DNA of 64,000 nucleotides from an uncultured virus (IMG/VR IMGVR_UViG_3300008050_000020) (taxonomy: Duplodnaviria; Heunggongvirae; Uroviricota; Caudoviricetes), in the IMG/VR virus record IMGVR_UViG_3300008050_000020; one strand, 5' to 3'. Of the stretch, positions 1,831 to 33,244 are shown piece after piece. The notes under the pieces are model-generated. The model was not told the origin of the DNA. It made no database searches and saw only the letters and a list, made by a program, of their open reading frames with translations. The translations under genes and the position numbers were made by a program. Position 1 is the stretch's first letter; each line of letters starts with the position of its first letter.

Positions 1831-4800
1831 ATGGCGACATTGCAAGAAGTGACAGCAGCGTCACTCGACTATTTCAACGGCGACAAGCTCGCGGCAAACG
1901 TTTTTGCGACAAAGTATCCGTTGATGTCACCAGACGGCGACATTCTAGAAGTGACGCCCGATGATATGCATCGCCGGATGGCTCGGGAGTTTGCGCGAGT
2001 TGAGTCAAAGTACGCCAATCCCATGTCGGAAGATGACATCTACGAGCTCCTAAAGGACTTCAGATACGTTATCCCTCAGGGCTCTCCCATGTCTGGGATC
2101 GGGAACTCCCACCAGATTCAGTCATTGTCAAACTGCTTTGTCGTCGAGTCGCCCTATGACTCGTATGGCGGCATTATGAAGACTGATCAAGAGCTGGTTC
2201 AGATCATGAAGCGGAGAGGTGGAGTCGGGACCGATGTCTCTTCACTCCGCCCCGAAGGGATGGGCACTAGCAATGCTGCCAAGACCTCTACCGGCATCGT
2301 GTCCTTTATGGGTCGCTACTCGAACACAACTCGAGAAGTAGCACAGAACGGCCGGCGAGGGGCGCTGATGATCTCAGTGTCCATTCATCACCCGCAGATT
2401 CTGGACTTCATTCGGTCCAAGCGCAACCGAGATAAGGTCACGGGTGCCAACATCTCTATTCGTCTTACAGACGAGTTCATGGAGGCTGTGCTCGCCGACG
2501 AGGACTACGAAGTCCGATTCCCAGTTGACAGTGACACGCCTCTGGTTTCCCAGCGTGTTAGTGCAAAGGAGATCTGGGACGAGATTGTTGAGTCAGCTCA
2601 CCAGTACGCTGAGCCCGGACTGCTGTTCTGGGACAATGTCACTAAGTACTCACCTGCTGACATTTACGCCGATCTGGGGTTTAAGACAATCTCGACGAAT
2701 CCTTGCGTGACAGGCGACACGCTCATCGCTGTTGCCGATGGTCGAAACGCTGTACCCATTTCACAGCTTGCCGCCGAAGGAGTTGATGTTCCTGTCTACT
2801 CTGTTGATCCGAAGTCCGGAAAGACTGTTATCAAGATGGGACGAAATCCTCGAGCAACCAAGACAAATCAGCCGATTTGGAAGGTCACTCTCGACGATGG
2901 CTCAGTGCTTCGAGGGACGTATGATCACCGAATCCTGGTGAAGACTTCGAACGGCCGAGAATACGTTGAGCTCTACAAGTTGCAACCAGACGACAGCATT
3001 GTGCCGTTTAACTCGTTCAACTCAAACGGTTATCGGCAGGTCTGCAACACGGGAGCACCTCTCAAGGGAGAGGGCTTCAGGAATCGTCGTCAGTATCGAC
3101 TAGTTCACGAATTCTATGAAGGTGAAACTAACGCAAAGACTCACGCGATTCATCACCGGAATTTTGACAGTCTCAATGACTCGATTGACAACCTGGAGAT
3201 CATGTTGCACGAGGATCATCGAGCACTCCATGCAGATCGGATTCGCGGTGATCAAAATCCGTATCACCAGATGTCGAATGAGTGGAAAGAATCATTTGCT
3301 TCTCACTCTGGAGAGACCAATGGTCACTACAGTGGGCTTACGAATGAGGAGCTGATTTCTCTTGGGCGAGACGTCTATGCTCGAGAGGGCCGATTCACAA
3401 AGTGCCTCTGGGCCGACGCAGCAAAGTCTTCGGGCGCTCCGATTCATGTCGCAAACGACTTTCGATTCGGATCTTTCTCGAACTTCAAGAGTAGTGTGAT
3501 CGGAAACCACAAGGTTGTCTCAGTAGAACACACAATGGAGCGAGAGGATGTCTATAACATCACAGTCGATGACAACCATAACTACTGTGTAATTACATCA
3601 ACTGAGGATGATCGGTTCGTCAAGTCCTCGGGTATCTGCATCAAGAATTGCGGAGAAATTCCACTCTGCGCATACGATTCGTGTCGTTTGATGGTCATCA
3701 ATTTGCTGTCGTTTGTGCGAAATCCTTTCACGGATTTGAGTGCTTTCGATTTTAATGCCTTTTCGCTTGTTGTTCAGCAGGCCCAGCGGTTGATGGATGA
3801 CCTTATCGATCTTGAGCTCGAGCAGGTTGAAAAGATCATTGCCAAGATCGAGGCTGATCCTGAGCCAGACGATGTCAAGTAGGCAGAGCTCGACCTCTGG
3901 TGCAAGATTCGTGAGAAGGCTGTCAATGGTCGCCGGACAGGCCTGGGTGTAACAGCTGTTGGTGACATGCTGGCAGCACTGGGAATTCGTTACGGCTCTG
4001 ACGAGAGTATCGACTTTGTCGAGCAGGTCTACAAAAACCTCAATTTGAATGCTTACCGGTCGTCATGCCAACTTGCTAAGGAGCGGGGAGCGTTCCCGAT
4101 CTTTGACTTTGAACGTGAGCAAGGTCACCCATTCATGGAGCGTATCTGGGAGGCAAATCCCGAGCTTCGCGAGATGATGCGCGAATTTGGCCGACGGAAC
4201 ATCGCACTTCTCACTACTGCACCAGCAGGGTCGGTGAGCTTGATGACCAAGTCGGTGGGTGATTACTTTGGTGTCACTTCGGGTATTGAGCAGTCGACAT
4301 ATTTGAAGCTCACACGACGCAAGAAGATCATGCCAGGTGAAGATGTCCCTGTCGACTTCATTGACCAGAACGGTGATAAGTGGACTGAGTTCGATGTCTC
4401 TCACGCAGGATTCAAGGCTTGGGCCGAGATTACTGGGAACAGCACTGATGACGTGGAGAAGAGCCCTTATTGCGGCGCAACTATCGATGACGTTGATTGG
4501 GTTGCTAAGGTCAAGATGCAGGCAGCAGCACAGAAGTGGGTCTGTCACGCCATCTCAAACACTACAAACTTGCCTGAAGATGTCTCTCGAGAGGTTGTCT
4601 CGCAAGTCTACTTGGCCGGCTGGCAGTCGGGATGCAAGGGTGTCACTGTCTACCGAGAGGGTTCACGGACGGGAGTCATTGTCAAGGAGTCCGCAGCTAC
4701 ACCCGAGGACGTTCACGTTCCGCATTCTGCTGTCAAGCGCCCCGAAGAGCTCCCGTGCGAGATCCATCAAGTCTCCATCAAGGGTGAGAAGTGGACTATT

Positions 4801-20015: not shown

Positions 20016-20063
20016 GAGCATCTAAGGCCCAAGCAAGGGCCGAGCTCGCTTACTGAGGTGCAA

Positions 20064-21776
20064 ATGCTCGATATTCGTCCGCCGGAGAGATTCGTTGGTC
20101 TCCATGCCCATACCGGCTTCTCCGTGTTCGATGGAATCGGATATCCTGCTGATCACATTGACTTCGTGCTGGAAAACGGCATGGATGCCTGGACGATCAC
20201 AGATCACGGAAATGCCAATGGGCATGCTCACGCTCGCAAGCACTTCCAAAAGCTTGCGAGGAAAGGTCAGAAGTACCGTCAGTTGTATGGGGTTGAGTTC
20301 TACTTTGTCCCAGACCTTGAAGAGTGGGATTCTGCGAGAGCGGATCACAAGGCGGCAGTAGCTGCCGCGAAGAAGGGTAAGGCTGCCGCCGAAGAAGAGG
20401 ATCAGGGACACGTTGTTGAGAGCGAGGAAGATACACGTACTAACTCGGCTGCCCAGGATCACTGGAAGCGACGCTACCATCTGGTCGTCTTCGCCAAGAA
20501 CCAGACGGGCATGCACAACTTGTACACTCTCGTTAAGAAGTCTTACAAGTACGGATTCTATCGCTTTCCTCGCATTGACTTTAAGTGGCTCAAGGAGCAC
20601 GGTGAAGGACTTGTTGTCTCGACTGCATGCGTCGGCGGATATCCTTCAAGTCTTGTCTTTCGAGAGTTTCCCGACAAGAAGTTTGATGAGCTGACTCCTG
20701 GACTATTGGACGGTCCTGAGTCTGTCCGCATTATGGCCAACCTTGAGAACATGGTTGATCGTTTCGTTGACGCGGTAGGCGAAGAGAACTTCAATCTTGA
20801 GATGCAGTTCAACAAGTTGCCCGCTCAGCATCTCGTCAACAAGGCACTGATCAATCTGTCAAAGGCAACTGGCATTCCGCTCGTCGCCACTGCAGACTCC
20901 CACTACTACAGGCCGGATCTCTGGGAGGCTCGAGAGTTGTACAAGGGTCTCGGCTGGCGAGGCAAGAAGGACGACGGCCTGACCCTTCCTTCGCGTGAAG
21001 ATCTCAAGTGCGAGCTGTACCCAAAGAATGCTGGACAGATGTGGGAGGAGTATCTCCAGCATAAGGACTCGTTCCCGTTCTATGCAGGCACTGAGGAGAT
21101 TGTTCGAGACTCCATTGAGCGAACTCATGACATCGCTTGGCAGCAGTGCGAAGACACCTGGATCGACACATCCGTCAAGCTCCCCAATTTCTCGAAGGAA
21201 GGGAATACTGCATTCAATCAGCTTCTAACGCAAGTCAAGAAGGGAATGATTGACCTCGAGCTTGACAAGAAGCCCGAATACGTCGCGCGTATCAAGGAGG
21301 AGATGGCAGACATCAAGTTCCTTGGCTTCGAGAACTACTTCCTTGTCATGAACGAAGTCTTCCATATCGCCGCAGATGAGACGTTGTTTGGCTGCGGCCG
21401 CGGCTCAGCATCTGGAAGCTTGGTCAACTATGTCCTGGGGATCACGCAAGTTGATCCCATCCAGTACGGTCTACTGTGGGCACGATTCCTGGGTCGACAC
21501 CGGTGCTTGACGGGCGAGACTCTCGTGCAGACGAAGAGTGGTCCCAAGAGATTGGATGAGCTCGAAGTGGGTAACTTGGTCTTTACACACACAGGCGAGC
21601 TCAAGCCTGTCACTGACACTGTCAAGGCTGCTCACGATATTGCCTACAAGATCAAGGTTAATGGTGAGGAGATCGTCTGTGCTCCCAACCACAAGTGGAT
21701 TGTTGTTCGTGACGGGCAGCAAATTGAAGTCATGGCATGTGAACTTCGACAGGGCGACAGCCTAGTTACATGGTGA
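20064..21776 (+). CDS. dnaE: DNA polymerase III alpha, piece 1 (PHP plus start of palm) fused to split intein N-half 1
   Basis: LHAHTGFSVFDG, ITDHGN, ATADSHY, GRGSASGSLV, LLWARFL, then CLTGETLV intein block A. Confidence 0.93.
   Translation: MLDIRPPERFVGLHAHTGFSVFDGIGYPADHIDFVLENGMDAWTITDHGNANGHAHARKHFQKLARKGQKYRQLYGVEFYFVPDLEEWDSARADHKAAVAAAKKGKAAAEEEDQGHVVESEEDTRTNSAAQDHWKRRYHLVVFAKNQTGMHNLYTLVKKSYKYGFYRFPRIDFKWLKEHGEGLVVSTACVGGYPSSLVFREFPDKKFDELTPGLLDGPESVRIMANLENMVDRFVDAVGEENFNLEMQFNKLPAQHLVNKALINLSKATGIPLVATADSHYYRPDLWEARELYKGLGWRGKKDDGLTLPSREDLKCELYPKNAGQMWEEYLQHKDSFPFYAGTEEIVRDSIERTHDIAWQQCEDTWIDTSVKLPNFSKEGNTAFNQLLTQVKKGMIDLELDKKPEYVARIKEEMADIKFLGFENYFLVMNEVFHIAADETLFGCGRGSASGSLVNYVLGITQVDPIQYGLLWARFLGRHRCLTGETLVQTKSGPKRLDELEVGNLVFTHTGELKPVTDTVKAAHDIAYKIKVNGEEIVCAPNHKWIVVRDGQQIEVMACELRQGDSLVTW
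21504..21773 (+). mobile_element. Split intein 1, N-half (90 aa)
   Basis: CLTGETLVQT start, block B VCAPNHKW, ELRQGDSL then stop. Confidence 0.9.
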
Positions 21777-22381: not shown

Positions 22382-23275
22382 ATGCCAGTCAAAACAAAGA
22401 AGTGTAAGAACTGTCGAAAGTTGATTCGGATCGAGTACGACGGAAGCCAATCAGCTAACGCAGCTTGCAATCGGAAGTACTGCTGCACTGAGTGTGGTAG
22501 AGCGTATCGGAAGAAGCATCGAACGAGTCGCTCTGTTGAGTTGACGTGCATCCACTGTGCTACGATGTACCACAAGCCAAAATCGCAATCGAAGAACTCG
22601 AAGTTTTGCTCTCGCAAGTGCCAGAATACGAGCTATGCACAAGCTTCTTCGTTGAAAGAAGATCGACAGTGTAATCAGTGCGGAAAGACGTATAGAATTG
22701 CCTCTACTTCTCGACGAAAGTACTGCTCACAACAATGTTCAGCAAAAGGCAGACGAAAGAATCGTCCTAAACTTTGCTGTGTTGTGTGCAAAAAGACGAT
22801 CAAAGGCGAGGGCAAGAAGTTCTGCTCTCGAAGCTGTCAATACGAAGGGCAGTCTTTGGGAATCGTCAAGAGTCATAGCAGCGGGCGATCAGGCTATCGA
22901 CGAGACCTCCCAAAGGTGAGATTTCGGAGCTCTCTAGAGGCCGATTATATGCGGTATTGCCAGCATACCGGAATCAGAGTGGAATATGCACCCAGAGCAT
23001 TCACGATTGAAGTCGACGGAAGGACACGCAAATACACGCCAGACTTCTACTTGCCTGACGAAGATCGATATGTTGAAGTCAAGGCTCTCAGAAAAGATGG
23101 GTTGTACAATAGCAATCTAATTTGCGTGAAAAAGCTGGATGAGTTGGGGTACAATATAACTCTGGTGCCCATGCGTGAATTCTATCAGATGCTGCGTGAT
23201 CAAGGGCTTTACAAAACGATTCCCAATCTCGAAAATCGAGACTACAGAGGTACACTTGAGCTCATCTACAGTTGA
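22382..23275 (+). CDS. Free-standing homing endonuclease: CxxC..(Y/F)CSxxC zinc-finger repeats plus PD-(D/E)XK (TnsA-like) domain
   Basis: Four Cys-rich repeats; FRSSLEA, YTPDFYL, YVEVK. Confidence 0.82.
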   Translation: MPVKTKKCKNCRKLIRIEYDGSQSANAACNRKYCCTECGRAYRKKHRTSRSVELTCIHCATMYHKPKSQSKNSKFCSRKCQNTSYAQASSLKEDRQCNQCGKTYRIASTSRRKYCSQQCSAKGRRKNRPKLCCVVCKKTIKGEGKKFCSRSCQYEGQSLGIVKSHSSGRSGYRRDLPKVRFRSSLEADYMRYCQHTGIRVEYAPRAFTIEVDGRTRKYTPDFYLPDEDRYVEVKALRKDGLYNSNLICVKKLDELGYNITLVPMREFYQMLRDQGLYKTIPNLENRDYRGTLELIYS

Positions 23276-23390
23276 GATTGAAAGCATCGAGATCATCACA
23301 GCTCCCGACAATATGGTGGACATCACTGTTGAAGATGACCACACTTACTGGTGTTCTCCAACAGGTGAGAACTGGTACCTGACACACAAC
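23256..23390 (+). mobile_element. Split intein 1, C-half (45 aa)
   Basis: VEIESIE..MVDITVEDDHTY..LTHN followed by Thr. Confidence 0.88.
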
Positions 23391-24884
23391 ACGTCCTGGC
23401 CGGATATCGACTCTGATGCAGGCGATCGTGATGCGCTGATCAACGCAGCCCGGAAGCTTTACGGCGAGGACGCGGTCATTCCCGTGTCTAACTTCAACAC
23501 CCTGAAGCTGCTGTCTCTGGTCAAGGACATCTCAAAGTTCTATGGCATCAACTTCCAGGAAGTCAACAAGATGACCAGCGGCCTCCAGCGTGAGGTCGAG
23601 CCGATGGATCGTGATCCCAACGAGGAGAAGTCGGTCTACGTCCTTACTCACGAAGCCTGTATGGAGCACTCGTCGAAGTACTTGGCTTTCATGTCGAAGT
23701 ATCCTGAGGTCAAGGATCACATCGAAACGCTGTTTATGCAGAATCGCTCGATGGGTCGGCACGCTGGTGGCGTCATCATTGCTCCCCCTGAGGAGCTTGA
23801 AAAGACGATGCCGATCGTCAAGGTTCGAGGAGATTTGCAGACTCCTTGGACGGAGGGAATGAACTTCCGTAACCTTGAAGACAACGGATTCATCAAGTTC
23901 GACTTCCTTGGCTTGACACTGATGAAGGATGTCGAGAATTGTATTCGTCGAATCCTCCAGAAGAAGGGGAAGAAGAACCCGTCATTCGCGGATGTCCGGA
24001 ACTACTTCGACCGTCATCTCAACTGTCGTTACGTCTCGCCTGACGATCCCAAGGTCTTTGAGACCGCATTCCATCAGGGTCACTTTGCACCCGGAATCTT
24101 CCAATTCACACAGAAGGGTGCTCGTCAGTTCTGTAACGCTGCCAAGCCATACGACATCCCCGAGCTTGGTGCAATTACTGCTATCTACCGACCAGGACCG
24201 CTCAAGGCTGACGTGCACAAGAAGTACGTTGCCACTAAGAAGAAGGTCCTCGACGGTGACAAGATTCGCTATCCTCACCCGCTAGTTGAGGAGGTCCTTT
24301 CTGAGACTCTCGGATTCCAGGTCTTTCAGGAGCACTGGATGATTCTCGCTCAGAAGCTTTCGGGCTTCACTCCGGGCGAATCGGATAAGCTTCGCAAGAC
24401 GCTGGTCAAGAAGTCCTTGGACACTCTTGACAAGAAGGCGGATGAACGGGCAGCTGCAAAGAAGAAGTTCATTGAGGGCGGCGTCGAGCTTCATGACATC
24501 AACCGCGCCGACATGGAAGAGCTCTGGGAACAGATGCGCTTCTTCTCACTCTATGGGTTCAACAAAAGTTTACACTTTGACTCGACGATTGATACCTACA
24601 CTGGAGAGGGACAATTTGTTGAACAGAGGAAGATCCAAGACTTCAAGGGTGGCGAAATCGTCCGGTCCCGTGATGAGTCAACTGGTGAAGACATCTTTGT
24701 TGAAGTCAAGGCAAACCATCCGCATGGCAAGCTGCCTCTCGTCAAGATCACGCTAGATGATGGAAACACGATCCGCTGCACGATGGACCACAAATTCCGG
24801 ACGACAGACGGCCGGATGCTTCCGCTTCACCAGATCTTGCGGGATGAGTTGGAGATTGTGACATGCGATGCGAAAAGTGTGTAG
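23256..24884 (+). CDS. dnaE: DNA polymerase III alpha, piece 2 (IntC1 - catalytic palm/thumb/fingers - IntN2); probable TTG start
   Basis: GAGG then TTG at 23256; WYLTHN|TSWPDIDSD, GRHAGGVII, IKFDFLGL, GIFQF, IYRPGP, YGFNK|SLHFDS. Confidence 0.92.
   Translation: MSSSTVEIESIEIITAPDNMVDITVEDDHTYWCSPTGENWYLTHNTSWPDIDSDAGDRDALINAARKLYGEDAVIPVSNFNTLKLLSLVKDISKFYGINFQEVNKMTSGLQREVEPMDRDPNEEKSVYVLTHEACMEHSSKYLAFMSKYPEVKDHIETLFMQNRSMGRHAGGVIIAPPEELEKTMPIVKVRGDLQTPWTEGMNFRNLEDNGFIKFDFLGLTLMKDVENCIRRILQKKGKKNPSFADVRNYFDRHLNCRYVSPDDPKVFETAFHQGHFAPGIFQFTQKGARQFCNAAKPYDIPELGAITAIYRPGPLKADVHKKYVATKKKVLDGDKIRYPHPLVEEVLSETLGFQVFQEHWMILAQKLSGFTPGESDKLRKTLVKKSLDTLDKKADERAAAKKKFIEGGVELHDINRADMEELWEQMRFFSLYGFNKSLHFDSTIDTYTGEGQFVEQRKIQDFKGGEIVRSRDESTGEDIFVEVKANHPHGKLPLVKITLDDGNTIRCTMDHKFRTTDGRMLPLHQILRDELEIVTCDAKSV
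24567..24881 (+). mobile_element. Split intein 2, N-half (105 aa)
   Basis: SLHFDSTI start after GFNK; block B IRCTMDHKF; stop after CDAKSV. Confidence 0.88.
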
Positions 24885-25831
24885 CTGAGGAGGCTGCCAA
24901 GAAGACAACCTGGCGGCACCGACTCAAGTGTGAGAAGTGGTTCGAGACATCGATTCTCGGTGAGGACTATGTTAAGTGTGCTCTCTGCGAGTTTCGAGCA
25001 AGACAACTGACACAGCACACCAAACGTGAGCATGGGTTCACCAAGAAAGAGTACATTGAGAAGTTCGGTCCGATTTCCTGCTCTGCTGCTAGCAAGGTTC
25101 GTTCACAAACGAACAAGGTGAATGGGAACTGGTTCGGTCGAGCATCTGACGAGAGGCGTGAAGAGTGGCGACAAGGGCTGGGAGAGAAGATCTCTGCCGG
25201 GATTATGTCATCACCTTCTGCTCGCGAAGCACGACGTCAAAATATGACAAAGCGGAATCAATCAGAAGAGGGTCGAAAGCTTTCGTCAGAGACTGCAATT
25301 AGAACATCTGCACGACCTGATATTCAAAAGAAGCGCGCAGCAGCACTCCAGAAGTGGCGCGATGAGAATCGAGAGGAATTTTACGAGAAGTGTACGAGAG
25401 CGATGCATCGGACATGGCAATCTGTTCCTGAATGTCGCCTCTTTGAGCTTCTTATTGATCGATTTCCTGAGCACGGATTTAAACAGAATCAACAGATTCG
25501 TAGGACGGGGAAGTTTAGAACTGTCAAGTCTGGAACAAGGCAAATTGACATCTACTCACGAGATCACAAGGTTGTTGTTGAGTTCGATGGGATCTATCAT
25601 TTTGAACCTGTTCGAGGTGCTGATCATCTTTCGCATATCCAAGCAAAAGATCAAGAGCTTGGAGAGGTGCTCTCAGCAGAGGGCTTCCTCGTAATCCGTG
25701 TCTCTTATGACCAGTTCGACTACAAACAGGGTGGATACTTTCATGCAAATTGCGTCCAGCACATGGTAAAATTGGTGAGTAAAGGTGAGCCAGGACTTCA
25801 CCTGATCGGCGAGTCGTATGAAAATAGTTGA
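24863..25831 (+). CDS. Free-standing Vsr/DUF559-like endonuclease with C2H2-like zinc finger
   Basis: CALC..HTKREH; QIDIY..VVEFDGIYHF; KDQEL..GFLVIRV. Confidence 0.8.
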   Translation: MRCEKCVAEEAAKKTTWRHRLKCEKWFETSILGEDYVKCALCEFRARQLTQHTKREHGFTKKEYIEKFGPISCSAASKVRSQTNKVNGNWFGRASDERREEWRQGLGEKISAGIMSSPSAREARRQNMTKRNQSEEGRKLSSETAIRTSARPDIQKKRAAALQKWRDENREEFYEKCTRAMHRTWQSVPECRLFELLIDRFPEHGFKQNQQIRRTGKFRTVKSGTRQIDIYSRDHKVVVEFDGIYHFEPVRGADHLSHIQAKDQELGEVLSAEGFLVIRVSYDQFDYKQGGYFHANCVQHMVKLVSKGEPGLHLIGESYENS

Positions 25832-26015
25832 CAACAACGTTGTGATTTCGCCGAAGTCGCAACTGTTCAAGATTCTTAAGGCAATGGCCGAGGATGAGTA
25901 CTCTGAGCCTCTTATCGAGAGAACGTCAAAAGGCGAGATTGTTGTCTACACTGGTCTCGTGAAAAATGGTCACGCATATCAACCAGGCAAACCAGAGAAT
26001 CTAAAAGGGAAGTAA
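25818..26015 (+). CDS. Small hypothetical protein between the halves of split intein 2
   Basis: Overlaps the endonuclease end; TAATG-coupled to dnaE piece 3. Confidence 0.55.
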   Translation: MKIVDNNVVISPKSQLFKILKAMAEDEYSEPLIERTSKGEIVVYTGLVKNGHAYQPGKPENLKGK

Positions 26016-26125
26016 TGGCCAAGATCACATCAGTAAAGTTCATCGGTGAGCATGAGACGTTCGATCTCGAGATCGATCATCCTGATCACCAGTACTACAC
26101 GTCAGATGGCATCCTGACGTCAAAC
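26015..26125 (+). mobile_element. Split intein 2, C-half (37 aa)
   Basis: MAKITSVKFIGEHETFDLEIDHPDHQYYTSDGILTSN followed by Ser. Confidence 0.9.
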
Positions 26126-27085
26126 TCTCACGCCGTCGCATACGCTATCGACAGCTACTACGCGGCCTGGCTGTACACTTACTACCCTCACGAGTGGCTG
26201 GCTACGGTTCTGCAGTCTAAGACAGCAGATGCCGATAAGCTGACCAAGGCGATCTCTGAGATCAAGATGCTGGGCTACACCTTCATTCAGCCTGACGTCG
26301 ACTTCGCGGGTCTGGAATGGGTCTTCTCAGAAGAAGCTGATGGTTTCGTTCCGCCTCTTGCTGCCATCAAGGGCGTAGGCAAGACTGCTGCGAGAGAGAT
26401 CATCGCTCATCGCCCATACCAGACTCTGGATGATCTCTTCTACGACGAAGACGGCGAGTGGTATCACTCCAAGATGAACAAGACGTGCTTCGCCAACCTC
26501 TGTAAGATCGAGGCATTCAACTCGATTAAGGAAGTCTCAAACGGCACCATTGAGCATCATCGCCAGCTCCATGAGATCATCGTAGGAGGTTATGATCGGC
26601 TCCGCAAGGGACGAAAGGGTCTCAGTCGGACGCAGGTTAAGCGTCGTGAGAAGAAGGGCGAGCTCGTCCCGGACGTCCTTGACGTCTTGATCGAGGAGAA
26701 CCAGTACACTGAAGACTGGACTCGAATCGAGAAGATCCAGATGAGCTACGATCTCACCAAGACCGCGAGGCTGGAACTCATCTTCCCGGAGGGAATCCTC
26801 GAGAAGCTTGAAAAGAAGAACATCCCACCAGTGACAGAGATCGGTGCCAAGAAGAAGGCCATTTGTTGGTTCTTCATCGTCGACTGTCAGGTCAAGAAGA
26901 CCAAGAAGGGAAATTCTTTTGTTCGACTCAAGGTCTCGGACCACAACAACGAGACTTGCTGGCTCCGCATCTGGGGCCTTGGTAAGCCTCTCGAGCTCTA
27001 CACGCTCTGGATGTGCCAGGCTAAGGGTGATCTCGACTGGGGTCCTTCCACTTCTGTCCGGGACATTCGTCCCATCGAGCTTTGA
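26015..27085 (+). CDS. dnaE: DNA polymerase III alpha, piece 3 (IntC2 - HhH/OB C-terminal part)
   Basis: ILTSN|SHAVAYA..AWL..YYP; IKGVG HhH; OB-like KKTKKGNSF. Confidence 0.92.
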   Translation: MAKITSVKFIGEHETFDLEIDHPDHQYYTSDGILTSNSHAVAYAIDSYYAAWLYTYYPHEWLATVLQSKTADADKLTKAISEIKMLGYTFIQPDVDFAGLEWVFSEEADGFVPPLAAIKGVGKTAAREIIAHRPYQTLDDLFYDEDGEWYHSKMNKTCFANLCKIEAFNSIKEVSNGTIEHHRQLHEIIVGGYDRLRKGRKGLSRTQVKRREKKGELVPDVLDVLIEENQYTEDWTRIEKIQMSYDLTKTARLELIFPEGILEKLEKKNIPPVTEIGAKKKAICWFFIVDCQVKKTKKGNSFVRLKVSDHNNETCWLRIWGLGKPLELYTLWMCQAKGDLDWGPSTSVRDIRPIEL

Positions 27086-27086
27086 G

Positions 27087-27869
27087 ATGACTGTAAAATA
27101 CACAGGTAGCAAGAAGTGGCTGACGAAGGTCTTGCGTCCCATTGACGAAGTCTACGAGCCTTTCTGCGGATCGGGAGTAGTCTCTTTCGAGAAGAGCAAG
27201 GTTTGTCACTTGAATGACCAGCTCGAGCCTCTCATTGCGGTTTACAAGCGTCTGCAGATTGACAAGGAGAGCTTCATCAAGGAGCTTCTCGCAGAGGTTG
27301 AGGGAATCAAGTCAGCCTCGAATTCGTCAGCTGCGTATTACGACGCACGTGCCAGATACAATGCTGGCGGGATGTCAGATCCCGTTCTCTTCTGCGTCAT
27401 CATCTACTTGGGATTCAATGGACTCTATCGAGTCGGTCCCAACGGGTGCAACGTTCCTTACGGTGGAGACTCTCGACGATTCAATCCTAAGGGCTTGATG
27501 GAGATTCCCGTCGAGAAGATTGCAACGCTGACTTGCGGATCTTGGGATGCCACAGCAGTCCCAAATGAAGACTGCACCATCTACGTTGATCCGCCCTACG
27601 CAACGACCTTCACGGGGTACACGAGAAAGGGGTGGGCGCATGCAGACAACGTGCAGCTCTTTGGTTGGCTAGCTGAGCAGCCCAATCCCGTTTTGATCTC
27701 ATGTCTAAGAACTGAAGACAACGAGCAGCTGCTGACCGACTTGAACTTCGACTTCGTCTCGATGGACAAGGTCTTCAGCAATGGTGCGAAGTCTGTCAAG
27801 AAGGGCGAGATTCTGGCATTCAACGACCGAGCTGTTCCTCATATTCTCTTTCGTCAGGTTCGACGATGA
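27087..27869 (+). CDS. dam: DNA adenine methyltransferase (Dam/D12 class)
   Basis: KYTGSK, YEPFCGSG, LND, GFNGLYR, YVDPPY. Confidence 0.88.
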   Translation: MTVKYTGSKKWLTKVLRPIDEVYEPFCGSGVVSFEKSKVCHLNDQLEPLIAVYKRLQIDKESFIKELLAEVEGIKSASNSSAAYYDARARYNAGGMSDPVLFCVIIYLGFNGLYRVGPNGCNVPYGGDSRRFNPKGLMEIPVEKIATLTCGSWDATAVPNEDCTIYVDPPYATTFTGYTRKGWAHADNVQLFGWLAEQPNPVLISCLRTEDNEQLLTDLNFDFVSMDKVFSNGAKSVKKGEILAFNDRAVPHILFRQVRR

Positions 27870-28302: not shown

Positions 28303-28728
28303 ATGAACGAGATTAAGGGCTTTTTCGAAGACTTTCGCTTCCTCAGCAACTTCTGGTATGCTGATGTTGTCTTCGAGGGCGTAACATACCGAAGCACTGA
28401 GGTTGCTTACCAAGCAGCCAAGTCTTTGGATCTTGACGAGCGCAAGAAGTTCGTCGGCCTAACGTCAGGTCAGGCAAAGCGCCTGGGGCAGAAGATTCAG
28501 CTTCGTGAAGACTGGGACTTCATTCGTCTGCAAGTTATGTACGACATTTGCAAAGACAAGTTTACCCGACATGCAGATCTCAAGGAGTTGCTGCTCTTGA
28601 CTGGTGACGCTTATCTCGAAGAAACAAACACCTGGAATGACACGTTCTGGGGAGTATGTGCAGCCGCCGGGGAAAACAATCTGGGCAAGACCCTCATGAA
28701 GATTCGAGAGGAAATTCTGAATGCATGA
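28303..28728 (+). CDS. NADAR (YbiA-like) family protein
   Basis: FLSNFW, STEVAYQAAK, KF..H.DL, DTFWG, GENNLGKTLMKIR. Confidence 0.9.
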   Translation: MNEIKGFFEDFRFLSNFWYADVVFEGVTYRSTEVAYQAAKSLDLDERKKFVGLTSGQAKRLGQKIQLREDWDFIRLQVMYDICKDKFTRHADLKELLLLTGDAYLEETNTWNDTFWGVCAAAGENNLGKTLMKIREEILNA

Positions 28729-29002
28729 TTTCGCTGAAGCGATGGCTGTCGAAAAGTTTATGATCGACCCTGGCACATGGGTTGAGCATCTCGACAAGAT
28801 CCCGCCCCGTGGCCGACAAATCATTGAGCAAGAAATGGCTGAGCCATCTGGCCCGACAGGGCTTGCTCTCGTTCCCGACAAGGGCTACGCTGTCCTCATG
28901 TCTGGGCAAGGTCCATTCATTTGCTGGGCAGAGTGGCGTGACAGCCACGACATTGTGACATTTCCAGTGTCTGAGCCCTCCAACGATCCTATCAATTGGT
29001 GA
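28721..29002 (+). CDS. Hypothetical protein
   Basis: Overlapping ORF with RBS. Confidence 0.5.
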   Translation: MHDFAEAMAVEKFMIDPGTWVEHLDKIPPRGRQIIEQEMAEPSGPTGLALVPDKGYAVLMSGQGPFICWAEWRDSHDIVTFPVSEPSNDPINW

Positions 29003-29006
29003 CCCG

Positions 29007-29519
29007 ATGATCACATACGTTCAGGGTGATTTGATTACGTCCGACTGCGACGTCATTGCCCACGGGTGTAACTGCTTCAACACTTGGGGCGCAGGTATTG
29101 CTCGCCAGCTTCGCACAGTTCACACTGAGGCCTTCGAAGCTGACTGGAAGACTCTGCGCGGCGACAAGGACAAGTTGGGCACATATACTGACGCTGTCTC
29201 GCATGGTCGACGAGTATTCAATCTGTATACGCAGTATGCCTACGGAAACAATACACGCCACTGTGACTACGATGCAATCAAATCGTCTCTCGAGTCAATG
29301 CGAGATGCTCTCAGAGTCACGGACGAAATCGAAGGAGCTAAGATCGGTCTTCCCAAGATTGGGTGCGGACTAGCAGGTGGAGATTGGAACGTCGTTGAAG
29401 GCATCATCGAAGAAGTCTTTTCGGGCATTGACATCTACGTCTATGTTCTAGACGACGGATCCATTGAAGCAGCACGCGCAGCAGGCGCACGAATCCAGGC
29501 GGCAATCCAGAATGCCTGA
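29007..29519 (+). CDS. Macrodomain protein (DarG/TARG1-like class)
   Basis: GDL..IAHGCNC..GAGIA, FNLYTQ, PKIGCGLAGGDW. Confidence 0.9.
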   Translation: MITYVQGDLITSDCDVIAHGCNCFNTWGAGIARQLRTVHTEAFEADWKTLRGDKDKLGTYTDAVSHGRRVFNLYTQYAYGNNTRHCDYDAIKSSLESMRDALRVTDEIEGAKIGLPKIGCGLAGGDWNVVEGIIEEVFSGIDIYVYVLDDGSIEAARAAGARIQAAIQNA

Positions 29520-29733
29520 TGGATCAGAAATCATTCGGGAAGTCACGTATTCCCGAGAAGAGCATTCCCGAGGCTCTGCCTGGATGTTCACATTGGGTGA
29601 CAATTCCGACATCCCTCAGTCTCATTGGCGAAAAGAGCATGACTCTACCGTTTGGCGATGGGTTGCATTGAAAACGTGTCATTACCGGGGCTGTTCAACA
29701 TGCCATCCCGAGGTCAAAAGTGAAAGTATCTAG
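29512..29733 (+). CDS. Hypothetical protein with C-terminal Cys motif
   Basis: CHYRGCSTCH. Confidence 0.45.
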   Translation: MPDGSEIIREVTYSREEHSRGSAWMFTLGDNSDIPQSHWRKEHDSTVWRWVALKTCHYRGCSTCHPEVKSESI

Positions 29734-30151
29734 TCTTCGAAAGATTCTCAAGCGGACAGGAGCCTCGATCATCGAGATTGATGATGTTGCGACTACAGTC
29801 CCACGACATCAGTTTCGCCTCTGTACTCGAGGAGAGATTATGTCAGCTGTCGCAAAGACAATGAAGTCTTTCCTCGTCGATGCTTACGGCAATGAGAACA
29901 AGGCGGATGAAAAAGAGTCCAAGTTCTCTGCCGTCATCCTGGGCTCTGAGTATTTTGACGACGCAGCAGACATCAAAGTGCGATTCGCGCGAAAGAAGAT
30001 TCTGGTCTGTGAATGTGAGGATCCATCTGCTGACAGTAGAACAACCAGACGCTTTAAGCTGCGAGTAGCTGTTTTTGGTGAATCACCCAATTGGGGACCC
30101 CGTAGAATGTGGAAAGACGCAGATTGCGACAATGACGAGATTCCGTTCTAA
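29720..30151 (+). CDS. Hypothetical protein, paralogue of 37388-37798
   Basis: LRKILKRTGASIIEID vs LRRVLGGTGAEVIEID. Confidence 0.6.
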   Translation: MKVSSLRKILKRTGASIIEIDDVATTVPRHQFRLCTRGEIMSAVAKTMKSFLVDAYGNENKADEKESKFSAVILGSEYFDDAADIKVRFARKKILVCECEDPSADSRTTRRFKLRVAVFGESPNWGPRRMWKDADCDNDEIPF

Positions 30152-30157
30152 GGCAGT

Positions 30158-30208
30158 ATGATTACATTCCCCACAAACCATCTGATCCTTGAGGGTCCTG
30201 ATCTCTCT
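30158..30208 (+). pseudogene. Orphaned original 5' end of the dNMP kinase gene
   Basis: MITFPTNHLILEGPD vs MITFPTNHLVIEGPD at 31088: 13/15 aa and 36/45 nt identical. Confidence 0.88.
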
Positions 30209-30242
30209 GAATCTTGCTTGATATGTACAACTAGGAGATATT

Positions 30243-31091
30243 ATGTTCTACCGAGAGTACGTGTGTGAGCACTGCGGAAAAGCGGGCAAGAAATCGGTAA
30301 GACATCGGTACCAGACAAAGCGAACTCAGAGATTTTGTGACCGTGCTTGCAGTAACAAGTGGATGCATAAGAATGGAGTCCTCAAGTCTGCGGGCAGAGA
30401 CAATCCGATGTATGGAAAATCAGTCAAAGAGCACTGGATAGAGAGGCACGGTAAAGAAAAAGCTCAAAAGCTTATCGCTCAACGTCGTGCTAGACAAGAG
30501 GCAGGAAGCGCTGGCGCAAACAACGGAATGTATGGTAAGGAGCATAGCGAGAAATCCAAACGTGCAATCTCTGAGTTTCGTGCAGGAAAAACGCTTGAAG
30601 AGCTCTGGGGCGAGGAGAGAGCAAAAGAATACAAATCTGAGTTGTCTGTTCGAATGTCTGGTTCTGGTAATCATATGTTTGGTAAAACTTCGACGGGCGG
30701 TCGCTCGATCAAAGGCACATACAAAGGCTTCTTTTTTAGAAGCCTTCTCGAGTATTCTTTCATGCGGCATCTCGAAGAGCAAGGTCATCCGCTAGACACT
30801 GTCGATTACGAGACAGTTCGCATTCGTGTCAGCGACAACATGACATACAAGCCCGACTTCTTCGTTCCTGCGACGCAGATTCTTTATGAGGTCAAGCCCG
30901 CGTACGCCGTCGCCCGAGAGGAGAATGTGATCAAGTTCACAGCAGCGAAGCATTATTGCAAAGAGCAAGGATGGACGTTCAAGGTGGTAACCGAGAATGA
31001 TTTCCGGAAGATTTCGTTTGCTGAAGCTGAGGAAGACGACGGCGTCGTCTTCGATGAACGAACGCTAAGCTATTTTAAGAGGACATCATGA
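30243..31091 (+). CDS. Free-standing homing endonuclease: Zn finger, NUMOD3-like repeats, TnsA-like PD-(D/E)XK domain
   Basis: CEHC..FCDRAC; NPMYGK/NGMYGK/NHMFGK; FRSLLE, YKPDF, LYEVK. Confidence 0.85.
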   Translation: MFYREYVCEHCGKAGKKSVRHRYQTKRTQRFCDRACSNKWMHKNGVLKSAGRDNPMYGKSVKEHWIERHGKEKAQKLIAQRRARQEAGSAGANNGMYGKEHSEKSKRAISEFRAGKTLEELWGEERAKEYKSELSVRMSGSGNHMFGKTSTGGRSIKGTYKGFFFRSLLEYSFMRHLEEQGHPLDTVDYETVRIRVSDNMTYKPDFFVPATQILYEVKPAYAVAREENVIKFTAAKHYCKEQGWTFKVVTENDFRKISFAEAEEDDGVVFDERTLSYFKRTS

Positions 31092-32038
31092 TTACGTTTC
31101 CGACAAACCATCTTGTCATTGAAGGGCCAGATTGTGCGGGGAAGACTACGCTCTACAGAGGCCTTCATAAGGCATCAGGATTCAGGTGGAACATCCTGGA
31201 CAGATCATTTCTGTCCATGCTTGTCTACGCCAAGATGTACAGTCGCGACACTGGCCTCCACGCCCAGGGTCTCTGGTCCGAGCTAACCAACATGAACAAC
31301 CGATTCGTGCTAATGCTCCCGAGCTATGCAGCAGTTGTTGAGCGATACAAGGTTCGAGGCGACGACATTCAGAACGAGCATACCCTCGAGAAGGTTGTAG
31401 ACCTCTTCGGCGACCACGACTGGCTTAGCTCGTTTCCCAACGTTACGCTGCTGGACAATTCTGATGTGGGACTCTCTGCGCTTGAAGACGATGTTGACCA
31501 GATTGTAGGCTGGCTTAAGACAAAGGAAGAGTACTCCATCGACGACATCGCAAGTGAGGTCGCTCGTTTCGTCTCTGTCATGCCCAACGGTTCAGTGGAC
31601 GACATGCGCGGGTACGAGACACCCATCAGCCTCACCTTCTACGACGACGGCGCCTTCGATGAAGGGCAAGACGCTTCCGAGATTTTTGCAGACGAAGAAG
31701 AGGGTGCTTACTATCAAGGCATCTACAACAGACTCATTGACAAGATTGGTGCTGAGCTGGAGGGAGACAATCCTTACAACGAAAAGCAGACTGTGAAGTC
31801 TCGACGCTTCGTTTATACAGACGACTCTTGCATCTCGTTCATCCAGATTCTCAATCGTGATGGCATCATGGACTTTCACGCAGTCCTCAGATCAACGAAC
31901 GTGGCCAAGACTTTCCGCAAGGACCTCAACTTTCTCTACTGGCTCGCTGAGTCTGTCCAGAAGAAGTTTCCCGAGCTTTCGTCTGTTAGGTCCACGCGAT
32001 TTCGGGTGCAAATGAACTCTGCTCACCTGGTGCGGTAG
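31088..32038 (+). CDS. dNMP (thymidylate-like) kinase fused to a thymidylate-synthase-like domain
   Basis: EGPDCAGKTT P-loop, LDR..S..VY; C-terminal SRR..SCISFIQ..HAVLRSTN..NSAH resembles a ThyA-fold core. Confidence 0.72.
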   Translation: MITFPTNHLVIEGPDCAGKTTLYRGLHKASGFRWNILDRSFLSMLVYAKMYSRDTGLHAQGLWSELTNMNNRFVLMLPSYAAVVERYKVRGDDIQNEHTLEKVVDLFGDHDWLSSFPNVTLLDNSDVGLSALEDDVDQIVGWLKTKEEYSIDDIASEVARFVSVMPNGSVDDMRGYETPISLTFYDDGAFDEGQDASEIFADEEEGAYYQGIYNRLIDKIGAELEGDNPYNEKQTVKSRRFVYTDDSCISFIQILNRDGIMDFHAVLRSTNVAKTFRKDLNFLYWLAESVQKKFPELSSVRSTRFRVQMNSAHLVR

Positions 32039-32167
32039 AGTTAAGCACAACGATTGAAGAGATTAAGGGATACGAAGAGACTTCTCGTGTAGCAGGCAAA
32101 AAGCTGGCACTTGCCCAATACTGTGAGTCTCGAGACTATCAGTGGAAGTGGTGGCCAGCAGAAGAGT

Positions 32168-32196
32168 TTGAACGGGAAGTCCGAGAGCAGTATAAT
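32168..32196 (+). promoter_or_regulatory. Sigma70-type promoter
   Basis: TTGAAC-17 nt-TATAAT upstream of the epimerase gene. Confidence 0.75.
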
Positions 32197-32227
32197 GCTT
32201 CTATCGCAACCCTCAGGAGACGAGAAT

Positions 32228-33244
32228 ATGAGTAGACGCTGTTTGGTCACGGGAGGCGCTGGGTTCATCGGTTCAAATCTGGTCAAGCGACTAGTTGCCG
32301 AAGGCTGGGATGTCGATGTCGTAGATGATCTGTCCTCTGGGCGACTTGATCTGTTGAGTGGCGTGACAGTCGCAGACGGCTTCATCAACGGAGCGGGTGA
32401 AGATGCAGATGTTCTGTTTCTACAGGTCGACTTTACTAATCAGCATGTTCTGAATCGCGTTCGTGCCAGTCGCTATGACGTCATTTTCCATCAGGCTGCT
32501 GTCCCTCGAGTTTCTTACTCTGTTGAAGAGCCCATTGAGACGATGGAGACGAATCTTCTGGGAACTGTCAAGCTCTTCAAAGCCGCTGCTGATGGGAATA
32601 CTCCCGTCGTCTGGGCGTCATCAAGCTCAGTTTACGGAGGGGCTCTCCTTCGTCCCACGTCAGAACAGATGAGAGGCGAGATTCTTCCCAAGTCGCCATA
32701 CGCGATGCAGAAGTACCACTGCGAGGACTATGCTGCTCTCTTCGGAAGTCTCTACGGGCTCAGGAGCATCGGCCTCAGATACTTCAATGTTTTCGGCCCA
32801 GGACAGTACGGTGACTCAGCCTACGCAACCGCCGTCTCTGCTTGGTGCCATGCTATCAAGGAGGGCGATGAGTGTCGCAGCGACGGGGATGGCGAACAGA
32901 CTCGTGACATGTGTTACATCGACAACGTCGTTCAGGCTAATCTCAAGGCAGCTAATGCACTTTTGAATGAGCTCGACTGGCAAGTTTATGGCACTCATGG
33001 ACTTTGTCTCAACGTAGCATGCGGTGATTTCGTTTCAAACAACGAGATTCTAGAGTTTCTCAAGACTCGATTTGGCGATCGAGTCAAGGTTAAGCATGCG
33101 CCTGAGCGAGCAGGAGACGTTAAGCATACACTGGCTGATCTCAGCGAAATCGAAACTCTGCTTGGCTATGCAGTCGAAGTTCGATTTTGGGATGGCCTTG
33201 AGAAGACTCTCGCTTGGTGGGGATTGATGAATGACGAAGACTAA
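32228..33244 (+). CDS. NAD-dependent NDP-sugar epimerase (GalE/WbpP-like)
   Basis: LVTGGAGFIGS, HQAA, ASSSSVYG, SPYAMQK, LRYFNVFGP, GEQTRD. Confidence 0.92.
   Translation: MSRRCLVTGGAGFIGSNLVKRLVAEGWDVDVVDDLSSGRLDLLSGVTVADGFINGAGEDADVLFLQVDFTNQHVLNRVRASRYDVIFHQAAVPRVSYSVEEPIETMETNLLGTVKLFKAAADGNTPVVWASSSSVYGGALLRPTSEQMRGEILPKSPYAMQKYHCEDYAALFGSLYGLRSIGLRYFNVFGPGQYGDSAYATAVSAWCHAIKEGDECRSDGDGEQTRDMCYIDNVVQANLKAANALLNELDWQVYGTHGLCLNVACGDFVSNNEILEFLKTRFGDRVKVKHAPERAGDVKHTLADLSEIETLLGYAVEVRFWDGLEKTLAWWGLMNDED

Follow-up and report, generated by a model that had tools for sequence, protein, structure and literature searches.

A homing endonuclease gene between two copies of a kinase start in an uncultured phage, a probable case of 5′-end replacement

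In intronless homing of the T4 SegF, SegG and MobE type, an intergenic endonuclease cuts a neighbouring gene of endonuclease-free phages away from its own insertion point, and a short stretch of flanking donor markers is passed on along with it. Friedrich and co-workers reportedly described in 2007 the nrdA gene of Aeromonas phage Aeh1 as split by mobE into two pieces whose products assemble. Fungal mitochondrial mobile open reading frames (mORFs) with a foreign gene C-terminus are known from Glomus atp6, atp9, cox2 and nad3 in the excerpted text of Beaudet et al. 2013 (PMC3630166), which also cites an atp6 mORF of Allomyces macrogynus. In the ‘fractured genes’ of Dassa et al. 2009 (PMC2677866), as the consulted part of that paper presents them, free-standing endonucleases lie inside split inteins of phage replication genes. 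We analysed 64,000 nucleotides (nt) of an uncultured virus (IMG/VR record IMGVR_UViG_3300008050_000020; this whole stretch is called the window), in which an endonuclease gene stands between two copies of the first codons of a kinase gene. Very probably, a homing endonuclease settled 5′ of the kinase gene and brought a replacement start with it, and codons 1–15 of the resident gene were stranded upstream. By analogy, the locus is a 5′ mirror image of the C-terminal duplications of the fungal mORFs.

The two copies (Table 1) were identical at 36/45 nt and 13/15 amino acids (aa) when aligned. The upstream copy reads ATG ATT ACA TTC CCC ACA AAC CAT CTG ATC CTT GAG GGT CCT GAT and the downstream copy ATG ATT ACG TTT CCG ACA AAC CAT CTT GTC ATT GAA GGG CCA GAT. 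At codons 3, 4, 5, 9, 12, 13 and 14 the difference is a synonymous third-position change (seven of nine), and the remaining two are conservative first-position changes, I10V and L11I. Random changes gave at least seven synonymous ones in nine with P = 0.0007 (20,000 simulations, transition:transversion ratio of 2). The runner-up match to the upstream 45-mer within the window reached 27/45 on the plus strand and 25/45 on the minus strand, and in shuffled windows (n = 200) the best 45-mer match averaged 25.1 with a maximum of at most 28. No likeness between the copies was found 5′ of their ATGs by sequence comparison. The endonuclease stop codon (TGA) and the downstream kinase start overlap as ATGA at 31088–31091. 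These recomputed values agree with a preliminary description, made from the sequence letters, which had reported a recoded duplicate of the kinase N-terminus on both sides of a TnsA-like endonuclease and a downstream start overlapping the endonuclease stop.

Past Asp15 the likeness of the copies breaks off sharply. The preliminary description had the upstream copy broken inside the P-loop and read two further residues, LS, as kinase sequence. The first part stands, as Asp15 lies inside the Walker A motif G13-x4-G18-K19-T20; the second is ambiguous. The sequence CTCTCTGAATCTT after Asp15 is shared with L097, a metagenome locus with the same layout, where it lies 26 nt farther from the GAT codon, so ‘LS’ may belong to the 5′ leader of the endonuclease cassette and not to kinase codons 16–17. 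Apart from this 26-nt indel beside GAT, the leader is common to the window and L097. Shuffled sequences equalled the observed P-loop match of the tail past codon 15 in 121/300 cases for the window and 27/300 for L097; provable homology therefore stops at Asp15. A decayed P-loop was accordingly rejected in the L097 tail (QLSRLTILN against LSGKTTLY, no better than shuffles at 27/300), as it was in the leader of a second metagenome locus, L096 (213/300). Concerted evolution of the window's two copies was likewise set aside, with 9 mutual differences against 7–14 to the copies of L097.

Table 1. Coordinates of the features at the kinase locus, in window positions
Feature	Position	Strand	Remarks
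geneX, upstream neighbour, left flank of the site	29720..30151	+	143 aa
Probable relic of the resident kinase start, codons 1–15 (MITFPTNHLILEGPD)	30158..30202	+	last codon falls within Walker A
5′ leader of the endonuclease cassette	30203..30242	+	ribosome-binding site AGGAG 30233–30237
Free-standing homing endonuclease gene	30243..31091	+	282 aa; PF08722 and NUMOD3 matches
Recoded duplicate, probable replacement start, codons 1–15 of the functional kinase (MITFPTNHLVIEGPD)	31088..31132	+	
Functional kinase gene	31088..32038	+	316 aa; phrog_761 thymidylate kinase, expect value (E) 2.3e-8
Walker A codons G13–T20 (GPDCAGKT), functional copy	31124..31147	+	codon 17 = Ala (GCG)

Mixed-strain assembly was the explanation by which the preliminary description could have been undone. 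In run X2, which is possibly the source sample, a 34.5-kilobase (kb) contig of depth 30 covers 28800–33200 and shows two differences over that interval, both distant from the duplicated starts. In the independent run X3, contigs corresponding to 30151–30629 and 30640–31449 cross the left and right junctions with no differences. Since contigs from an independent sample bridge both junctions, an assembly artefact is refuted.

Relatives of the locus were collected as 80 kinase loci from viral contigs and 80 from metagenomes, all by alignment-based scans. A single-sequence kinase scan of viral contigs gave no matches. Against cultured-phage records, blastn with 29000–33000 returned one irrelevant 80-nt match and tblastn with the kinase returned none; the DNA polymerase III alpha protein (DnaE) of the window is at most 33% identical to that of any cultured phage. 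The endonuclease adjoins the kinase in 0/80 viral-contig loci and in 2/80 metagenome loci, L096 and L097. The order in L097 is that of the window: macro-domain gene, geneX, a 15-codon kinase start (MITFPTNHLVLEGPD), leader, endonuclease and kinase. Between the two, the kinases are 88% identical in aa over the 171 residues present and the endonucleases 68% identical in aa, with about 78% nt identity. In L093, L094 and L095, geneX is followed directly by an intact kinase gene and there is no endonuclease. The upstream copy of the window starts 6 nt past the geneX stop, the same spot as the kinase start in L093–L095, and thus occupies the native position expected of a resident kinase start. In each of three comparisons, the same site carries the endonuclease on one side and lacks it on the other: the window and L097 against L093–L095, L096 against L092, and L195 and L196 against L197. 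The endonuclease-free kinase alleles carry the DLSGK P-loop that had been predicted for them, in 4/4 loci (L092–L095, three distinct sequences). Furthermore, the endonucleases of the window, L097 and L096 are equidistant (64–68% aa), whereas the kinases of the same loci are 88% identical in one pair and 61–66% in the others. Because the endonuclease distances are discordant with those that the host gene shows, the endonuclease has moved between lineages.

The loci L096, with endonuclease, and L092, without it, form a near-isogenic pair, with 3 mismatches in 1666 nt of left flank. L096 has 1621 extra nt immediately before the kinase ATG, made up of a NADAR gene, a small open reading frame (ORF) and the endonuclease, and the left junction of this insert lies on the ATGA through which the preceding ORF and the next gene are coupled. 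Kinase codons 2–23 differ between the two at 29 positions, and from codon 24 on there are 0 mismatches in 790 nt. The pair thus exhibits a conversion tract of 5′ codons, in which the kinase start, up to and including the Walker A codons, is linked to the endonuclease. Within this tract, codon 17 is Ala-GCG in 3/3 endonuclease-linked kinase alleles (window, L097 and L096). Among 138 distinct kinase N-termini in the collected loci, 114 have Ser17 and 20 have Ala17; three carry GCG, two of them being L096 and L097, and GCG occurs in 1/136 other distinct alleles. This distribution is suggestive of codon-17 GCG being a resistance polymorphism.

Two other features of this pair were noted. A second, unrelated patch of divergence, at 4359–4393 near the kinase 3′ end, has 26 mismatches in 35 nt with perfect identity around it; it spans 12 codons, SVHENYSELGPT in one and FVHGTHQSVFDV in the other, and an inversion does not account for it. 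Besides the endonuclease, the segment by which L096 differs from L092 (1879–3501 in L096) carries the NADAR gene and the small ORF, and endonuclease-linked exchange may therefore move neighbouring cargo genes.

The polarity of such an exchange could be read at a second type of locus. A scan of viral contigs for the endonuclease family gave 23 loci, and L195 and L196 came from a further search. In L178, L195 and L196 a family endonuclease, 37% identical to that of the window, precedes a gene for an XPD/DinG-like helicase (Pfam). The helicase N-terminus is repeated upstream of the L178-type endonuclease by a 28-codon ORF (GTG-DISKHFPY...LKNDKK-stop). The endonuclease-free relative is L197, which has a 90% identical helicase and the same upstream context. 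With the native start of L197 the upstream fragment shares 78/87 nt and 27/29 aa, against 58/87 nt and 17/29 aa for the endonuclease-linked helicase start. Over the rest of the helicase, 24–30 of 30 residues are identical per stretch, and 26–30 in all stretches except one. The non-synonymous differences end at the codon just before the Walker A motif GTGVGKS, within the first 35 codons from the anchor. At this locus the upstream fragment is therefore native and the downstream start foreign, which shows the polarity directly. According to the preliminary description, coding selection had once acted on both kinase copies, and the homologous start had probably come with the cassette out of another lineage. 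Position, the endonuclease-free alleles, the L096/L092 pair and the helicase locus all support that proposal.

Several observations weigh against this reading. L096 has no upstream relic, so the element can occur without one, and gain and loss between L096 and L092 cannot be polarised from two sequences. The hint of co-conversion in the L096 protein amounts to only 20/25 against 18/25 residues. Ala17 also occurs in 18/136 alleles without a nearby endonuclease, and the Ser17Ala(GCG) link comes from effectively two independent lineages. Flank duplication was found in a minority of family loci, 3/13 in the nucleotide test and 3/12 in the protein test, these being the window, L097 and L178. Both tests covered the loci with listed neighbours (L096, L172, L175–L178, L180, L181 and L194) together with the window, L097 and the distant L073, and the nucleotide test also L179. 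No joint that skips the cassette was seen in contigs of runs X2–X5, although contigs drop rare variants and this is uninformative either way. No endonuclease-free allele was found close to the window's own genome; lacking such a near-identical partner, the polarity at the window rests on position and on analogy. Finally, the conservation of the relic calls for repeated homing or for selection on the relic itself, and the data fit both.

Selection on the relic belongs to an improbable alternative, in which a single ancient insertion was inherited vertically by the window and L097 and the relic was kept as a leader peptide or a translation-coupling ORF that regulates the endonuclease. The relics of the two loci differ at 9 nt, 8 of them third positions (proportions of synonymous and non-synonymous sites that differ, pS 0.77 and pN 0.03), and at least eight synonymous changes in nine are expected by chance with a probability of 5e-5. 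The flanking genes of the same loci are near synonymous saturation (pS 0.59–0.80). A neutral relic from a common ancestor is thus unlikely, and the preserved coding pattern agrees with selection, as do the retained ATG with its native ribosome-binding context and the 26-nt overlap of the window's relic ORF with the endonuclease start. That ORF, however, owes its 36 codons to a frame that stays open to 30268 through a tail that is not conserved, and the corresponding ORFs stop 22 nt (L097) and about 60 nt (L178) before the endonuclease ATG. A locus without any relic, L096, also speaks against a regulatory role, and the first 15 residues of a truncated kinase have no obvious function. Vertical descent in turn fits poorly with the endonucleases of the window and L097, which are 68% identical to each other and 64–66% to that of L096 although the kinases are 88% identical. 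We infer, as the preferred explanation, that the coding-like relic reflects repeated homing into functional alleles and not selection on a peptide.

It is quite unlikely that the polarity was the reverse, with the downstream start resident and the upstream 15 codons imported with the endonuclease. The copies themselves offer this reading some room, being 45 nt long with saturated synonymous sites, and neither is measurably nearer any relative (7–17 nt pairwise). Against it, the upstream copy has the post-geneX position of the kinase start in L093–L095, the start that differs between L096 and L092 is the one adjoining the endonuclease 3′ end, and the upstream fragment of the helicase locus is native.

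We regard as scarcely tenable a reading in which the intervening 930 nt are a group I intron or are skipped by translational bypass, with exon 1 (30158 to about 30208) joined to Gly18 at about 31139. GAT CTC TCT followed by GGG AAG ACT would indeed be in frame and read DLSGKT, and the last letters, T for the upstream piece and G for the skipped one, are as at group I splice sites. Yet a search of 29000–33000 against Rfam gave no match to group I, group II or other intron families at E ≤ 10, the only match being an unrelated one of small nucleolar RNA type (E 2.2). The endonuclease ORF fills all but 40 nt, which lie between relic and endonuclease with 0 nt after it, and a ribozyme core would not fit. 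The downstream copy comes with a ribosome-binding site of its own and a complete ORF, like all homologues: 169 at E ≤ 0.001 among 822 candidates were full length and started MI.FPT, and 24 aligned homologues were collinear with the kinase from the N-terminus, MI.FPT...EGPD[CL][SA]GK[TS]. In L097, moreover, the upstream piece is longer by 26 nt and would not join in frame. No Hint or intein domain was found in the kinase or the endonuclease by a Pfam scan.

Tn7-like transposition with the repeat as target-site duplication, suggested by the TnsA-like name that Pfam gives the nuclease domain, and a two-strain assembly chimera have a negligible probability, since no TnsB-, TnsC- or TnsD-like genes adjoin, geneX and the kinase being the sole neighbours and no Tn7 transposase set, the 45-nt repeat is coding sequence, 20% diverged (80% identical) and synonymous-biased and not a short exact duplication, independent contigs bridge both junctions, and the different phage L097 has the same layout.

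The element is a free-standing, intronless homing endonuclease, with a nuclease joined to modular DNA-binding motifs, a co-conversion tract and no intron or intein. Under replacement of the kinase start, the enzyme would cut endonuclease-free kinase alleles in or beside the Walker A codons. This placement follows from where the tracts end: codon 15 is the last of the kinase relic and codon 23 the last of the donor tract, and in the helicase the relic stops 6 codons short of the motif, with the foreign tract reaching the codon that precedes it. The Walker A codons at which the conversion tracts end are thus probably the cut site. The break would be repaired from an endonuclease-bearing genome; on the 3′ side repair would be homologous and would copy the donor kinase start to about codon 17–23, including the Ser17 to Ala (GCG) change, along with the endonuclease. 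Unless it carries a relic, the donor has no 5′ homology beyond the endonuclease, so that the left end would be either resected, as in L096, or joined to the leader, as in the window, L097 and L178. In the window lineage, codons 1–15 of the recipient would have been retained and joined to the endonuclease leader. The predicted product is the order of Table 1, relic, leader, endonuclease and a foreign start fused to the kinase, in which the kinase would stay intact without an intron or intein. Because the relic lacks the target site and the functional copy has a variant of it, the genome should be immune to its own enzyme; Ser17Ala(GCG) is the change that would confer this resistance. A relic-bearing donor would offer geneX and codons 1–15 as a left homology arm, and each homing event would then install the recipient's own, hitherto functional codons 1–15 as the new relic.

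A wider reading, which we advance tentatively and hold to be somewhat less probable than its negation, is that the NUMOD3 and TnsA-like endonuclease family specialises in Walker A coding DNA. Its members would invade the 5′ side of unrelated P-loop nucleoside triphosphatase genes, nucleotide kinases and XPD/DinG-like helicases, in marine phages, would cut naive alleles at their Walker A codons and would move with a replacement start, entering essential genes without splicing. Fossil starts would be left upstream whenever the left junction is non-homologous, and they would stay coding-like because each homing event captures a fresh start from a functional allele. In 9/9 close family loci, the set with listed neighbours given above, no more than about 50 nt separate the endonuclease stop from the start of a kinase or helicase gene, and in 8/9 a clear Walker A motif lies within the first approximately 50 codons of that gene. 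The neighbours are helicases in L175–L178 (L176 without a Pfam scan), a thymidylate kinase above the Pfam threshold in L181 and a window-type kinase in L096; L172 and L180 have weaker kinase or AAA matches, and the L194 neighbour has no Pfam match and only a degenerate GQDRCAKSS motif. Left out of this set were L173 and L174, whose match statistics equal those of L172, L179, which has a 110-codon ORF only and entered the nucleotide duplication test alone, and L182–L193, which match only the NUMOD/linker region, in part and at E 9e-11 or weaker.

Compared with T4-type intronless homing, the locus shares the flanking donor tract, here codons 2–23 of the L096/L092 pair. It differs in that the T4 enzymes are GIY-YIG or HNH endonucleases that are not known to leave a duplicated fragment, whereas here and at the helicase locus the left junction is non-homologous and the resident start is stranded. 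Like the nrdA/mobE arrangement of Aeh1, it has a free-standing endonuclease inside a coding region for nucleotide metabolism with no intron or intein; unlike that arrangement, a complete gene would have been restored by the carried-in 5′ end, and the leftover piece is 15 codons long.

The resemblance to the fungal mORFs, as the excerpted text of PMC3630166 has them, extends to a free-standing endonuclease that brings a diverged gene end, which becomes functional, to a native end left as an unused duplicate with mostly synonymous differences, and to an inserted copy that groups with other lineages. In contrast to those mORFs, the end replaced here would be the 5′ one, with start codon and ribosome-binding site, and not the 3′ one. 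The host is a phage and not an organelle, and the endonuclease is of the PD-(D/E)xK and NUMOD3 kind, not LAGLIDADG or GIY-YIG, and is not fused in frame. With the fractured genes, going by the consulted part of PMC2677866, it has in common uncultured marine phages, free-standing endonucleases with their own control elements in essential genes, and NUMOD3. Unlike them, the kinase is unsplit, there is no intein, a gene start is duplicated in place of protein trans-splicing, and the nuclease is TnsA/endonuclease-I-like and not of the Vsr-like family.

A phage 5′-end duplication beside an endonuclease was not described in the literature searched, which took in few subscription journals and no supplementary files. 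What appears new at this locus is the 5′-end replacement, the phage host, the combination of PD-(D/E)xK with NUMOD3, and the consistent association with P-loop gene starts. Beside introns and inteins or split genes, carrying a spare gene end would be a third way for a selfish endonuclease to occupy an essential gene, a strategy so far described, in the literature searched, for the 3′ ends of fungal mitochondrial genes. The near-isogenic pairs give exact tract boundaries, which point to the Walker A codons as the target; if this is true, a family of PD-(D/E)xK homing endonucleases is aimed at one of biology's most conserved motifs. Relics of this kind create spurious short ORFs and chimeric 5′ ends, and they can mislead phage gene calling and single-gene phylogenies.

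The endonuclease has a zinc-finger-like, Cys-rich N-terminus (pattern CxxC...CxxxC), NUMOD3 DNA-binding repeats and a C-terminal TnsA-like PD-(D/E)xK nuclease. Pfam gave PF08722 (Tn7_TnsA-like_N) at 40.5 bits over residues 198–251 (cut-off 26.5) and NUMOD3 at 36.9 bits (cut-off 20.4), and several PHROG ‘endonuclease’ families match the ORF. The PD-(D/E)xK residues E170, D205 and E216-x-K218 are invariant across 12 aligned homologues. Searched against the PDB, the alignment profile matched T7 endonuclease I (E 1.8e-5). An AlphaFold (AF2) model had a mean predicted local distance difference test score (pLDDT) of 81.5; its best Foldseek match was TnsA (1t0f_B), with a probability of 1.0 but an E of only 7e-3, followed by the catalytic domain of I-Bth0305I, Vsr and T7 endonuclease I. 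Judged by the profiles and the model, the nuclease domain is of TnsA-like, PD-(D/E)xK fold, and the earlier label ‘TnsA-like’ is apt for the fold and not for a Tn7-type transposon. Among the endonucleases of the window, L097 and L096, pN is about 0.2 and pS about 0.8 (pN/pS about 0.25), and on these ratios the ORFs are under purifying selection. A 348-aa homologue, P0122 (67% identical), has its N-terminal Cys-rich module tandemly duplicated, which suggests a reshuffling of DNA-binding modules in this family.

For the cassette, neither a promoter nor a terminator signal rose above shuffles. An RNA hairpin masking the endonuclease ribosome-binding site was considered and rejected, with z scores against shuffles of +1.3 for the window, +0.15 for L097 and +0.19 for L096. 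L178 has a perfect 16-base-pair hairpin at 2359–2405 (z −4.4 against shuffles), the 3′ arm of which overlaps the endonuclease ribosome-binding site. Similar hairpins have been described in the translational control of other phage endonucleases, and the window has no comparable one.

The N-terminal half of the kinase is a P-loop kinase of deoxynucleoside kinase/thymidylate kinase type, as judged from phrog_761 and the PDB profile. The PDB profile search returned SPbeta YorR (E 1.3e-7), thymidylate kinase (0.018) and deoxycytidine monophosphate (dCMP) hydroxymethylase (0.026). In Pfam, the window kinase matches AAA_28 alone, at 22.2 bits and below the cut-off of 27; many homologues carry PF02223 or PF01712. 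As the window protein falls below the Pfam thresholds, deoxynucleoside monophosphate kinase is a plausible label only. The C-terminal half (residues approximately 190–316) has the invariant pattern RRF.Y..D.CIS...RS...D..F...SAH and in the profile search weakly matches T4 dCMP hydroxymethylase near its active-site region, with the E of 0.026 given above. One possibility is a fusion of the kinase with a thymidylate-synthase-like domain, perhaps serving base modification. A nicotinamide adenine dinucleotide-dependent epimerase gene lies directly downstream of the kinase in most relatives. On the other side, geneX gave no Pfam or PHROG match, and a NADAR gene (28303–28728) and the macro-domain gene (29007–29519) lie just upstream of it.

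Elsewhere in the window, the DnaE gene is in three pieces, 20058–21776, approximately 23175–24884 and 26015–27085. Between pieces 1 and 2 the break falls at position 98|99 of the Pfam DNA_pol3_alpha model. Sub-threshold Hint/intein matches close pieces 1 and 2, and pieces 2 and 3 begin intein-C-like. Both gaps are occupied by free-standing endonuclease genes. The first gap holds an endonuclease (22382–23275) with a Cys-rich repeat region and an endonuclease-I/TnsA-like domain, and the second a DUF559/Vsr-like endonuclease (24863–25831). This is a ‘fractured gene’ arrangement as that term is used in the consulted part of Dassa et al. 2009 (PMC2677866), and L073 has the same at the first site. 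The ORF at 26844–27869 has a DPPY motif, is conserved beside the polymerase in L012 and looks like a putative adenine DNA methyltransferase.

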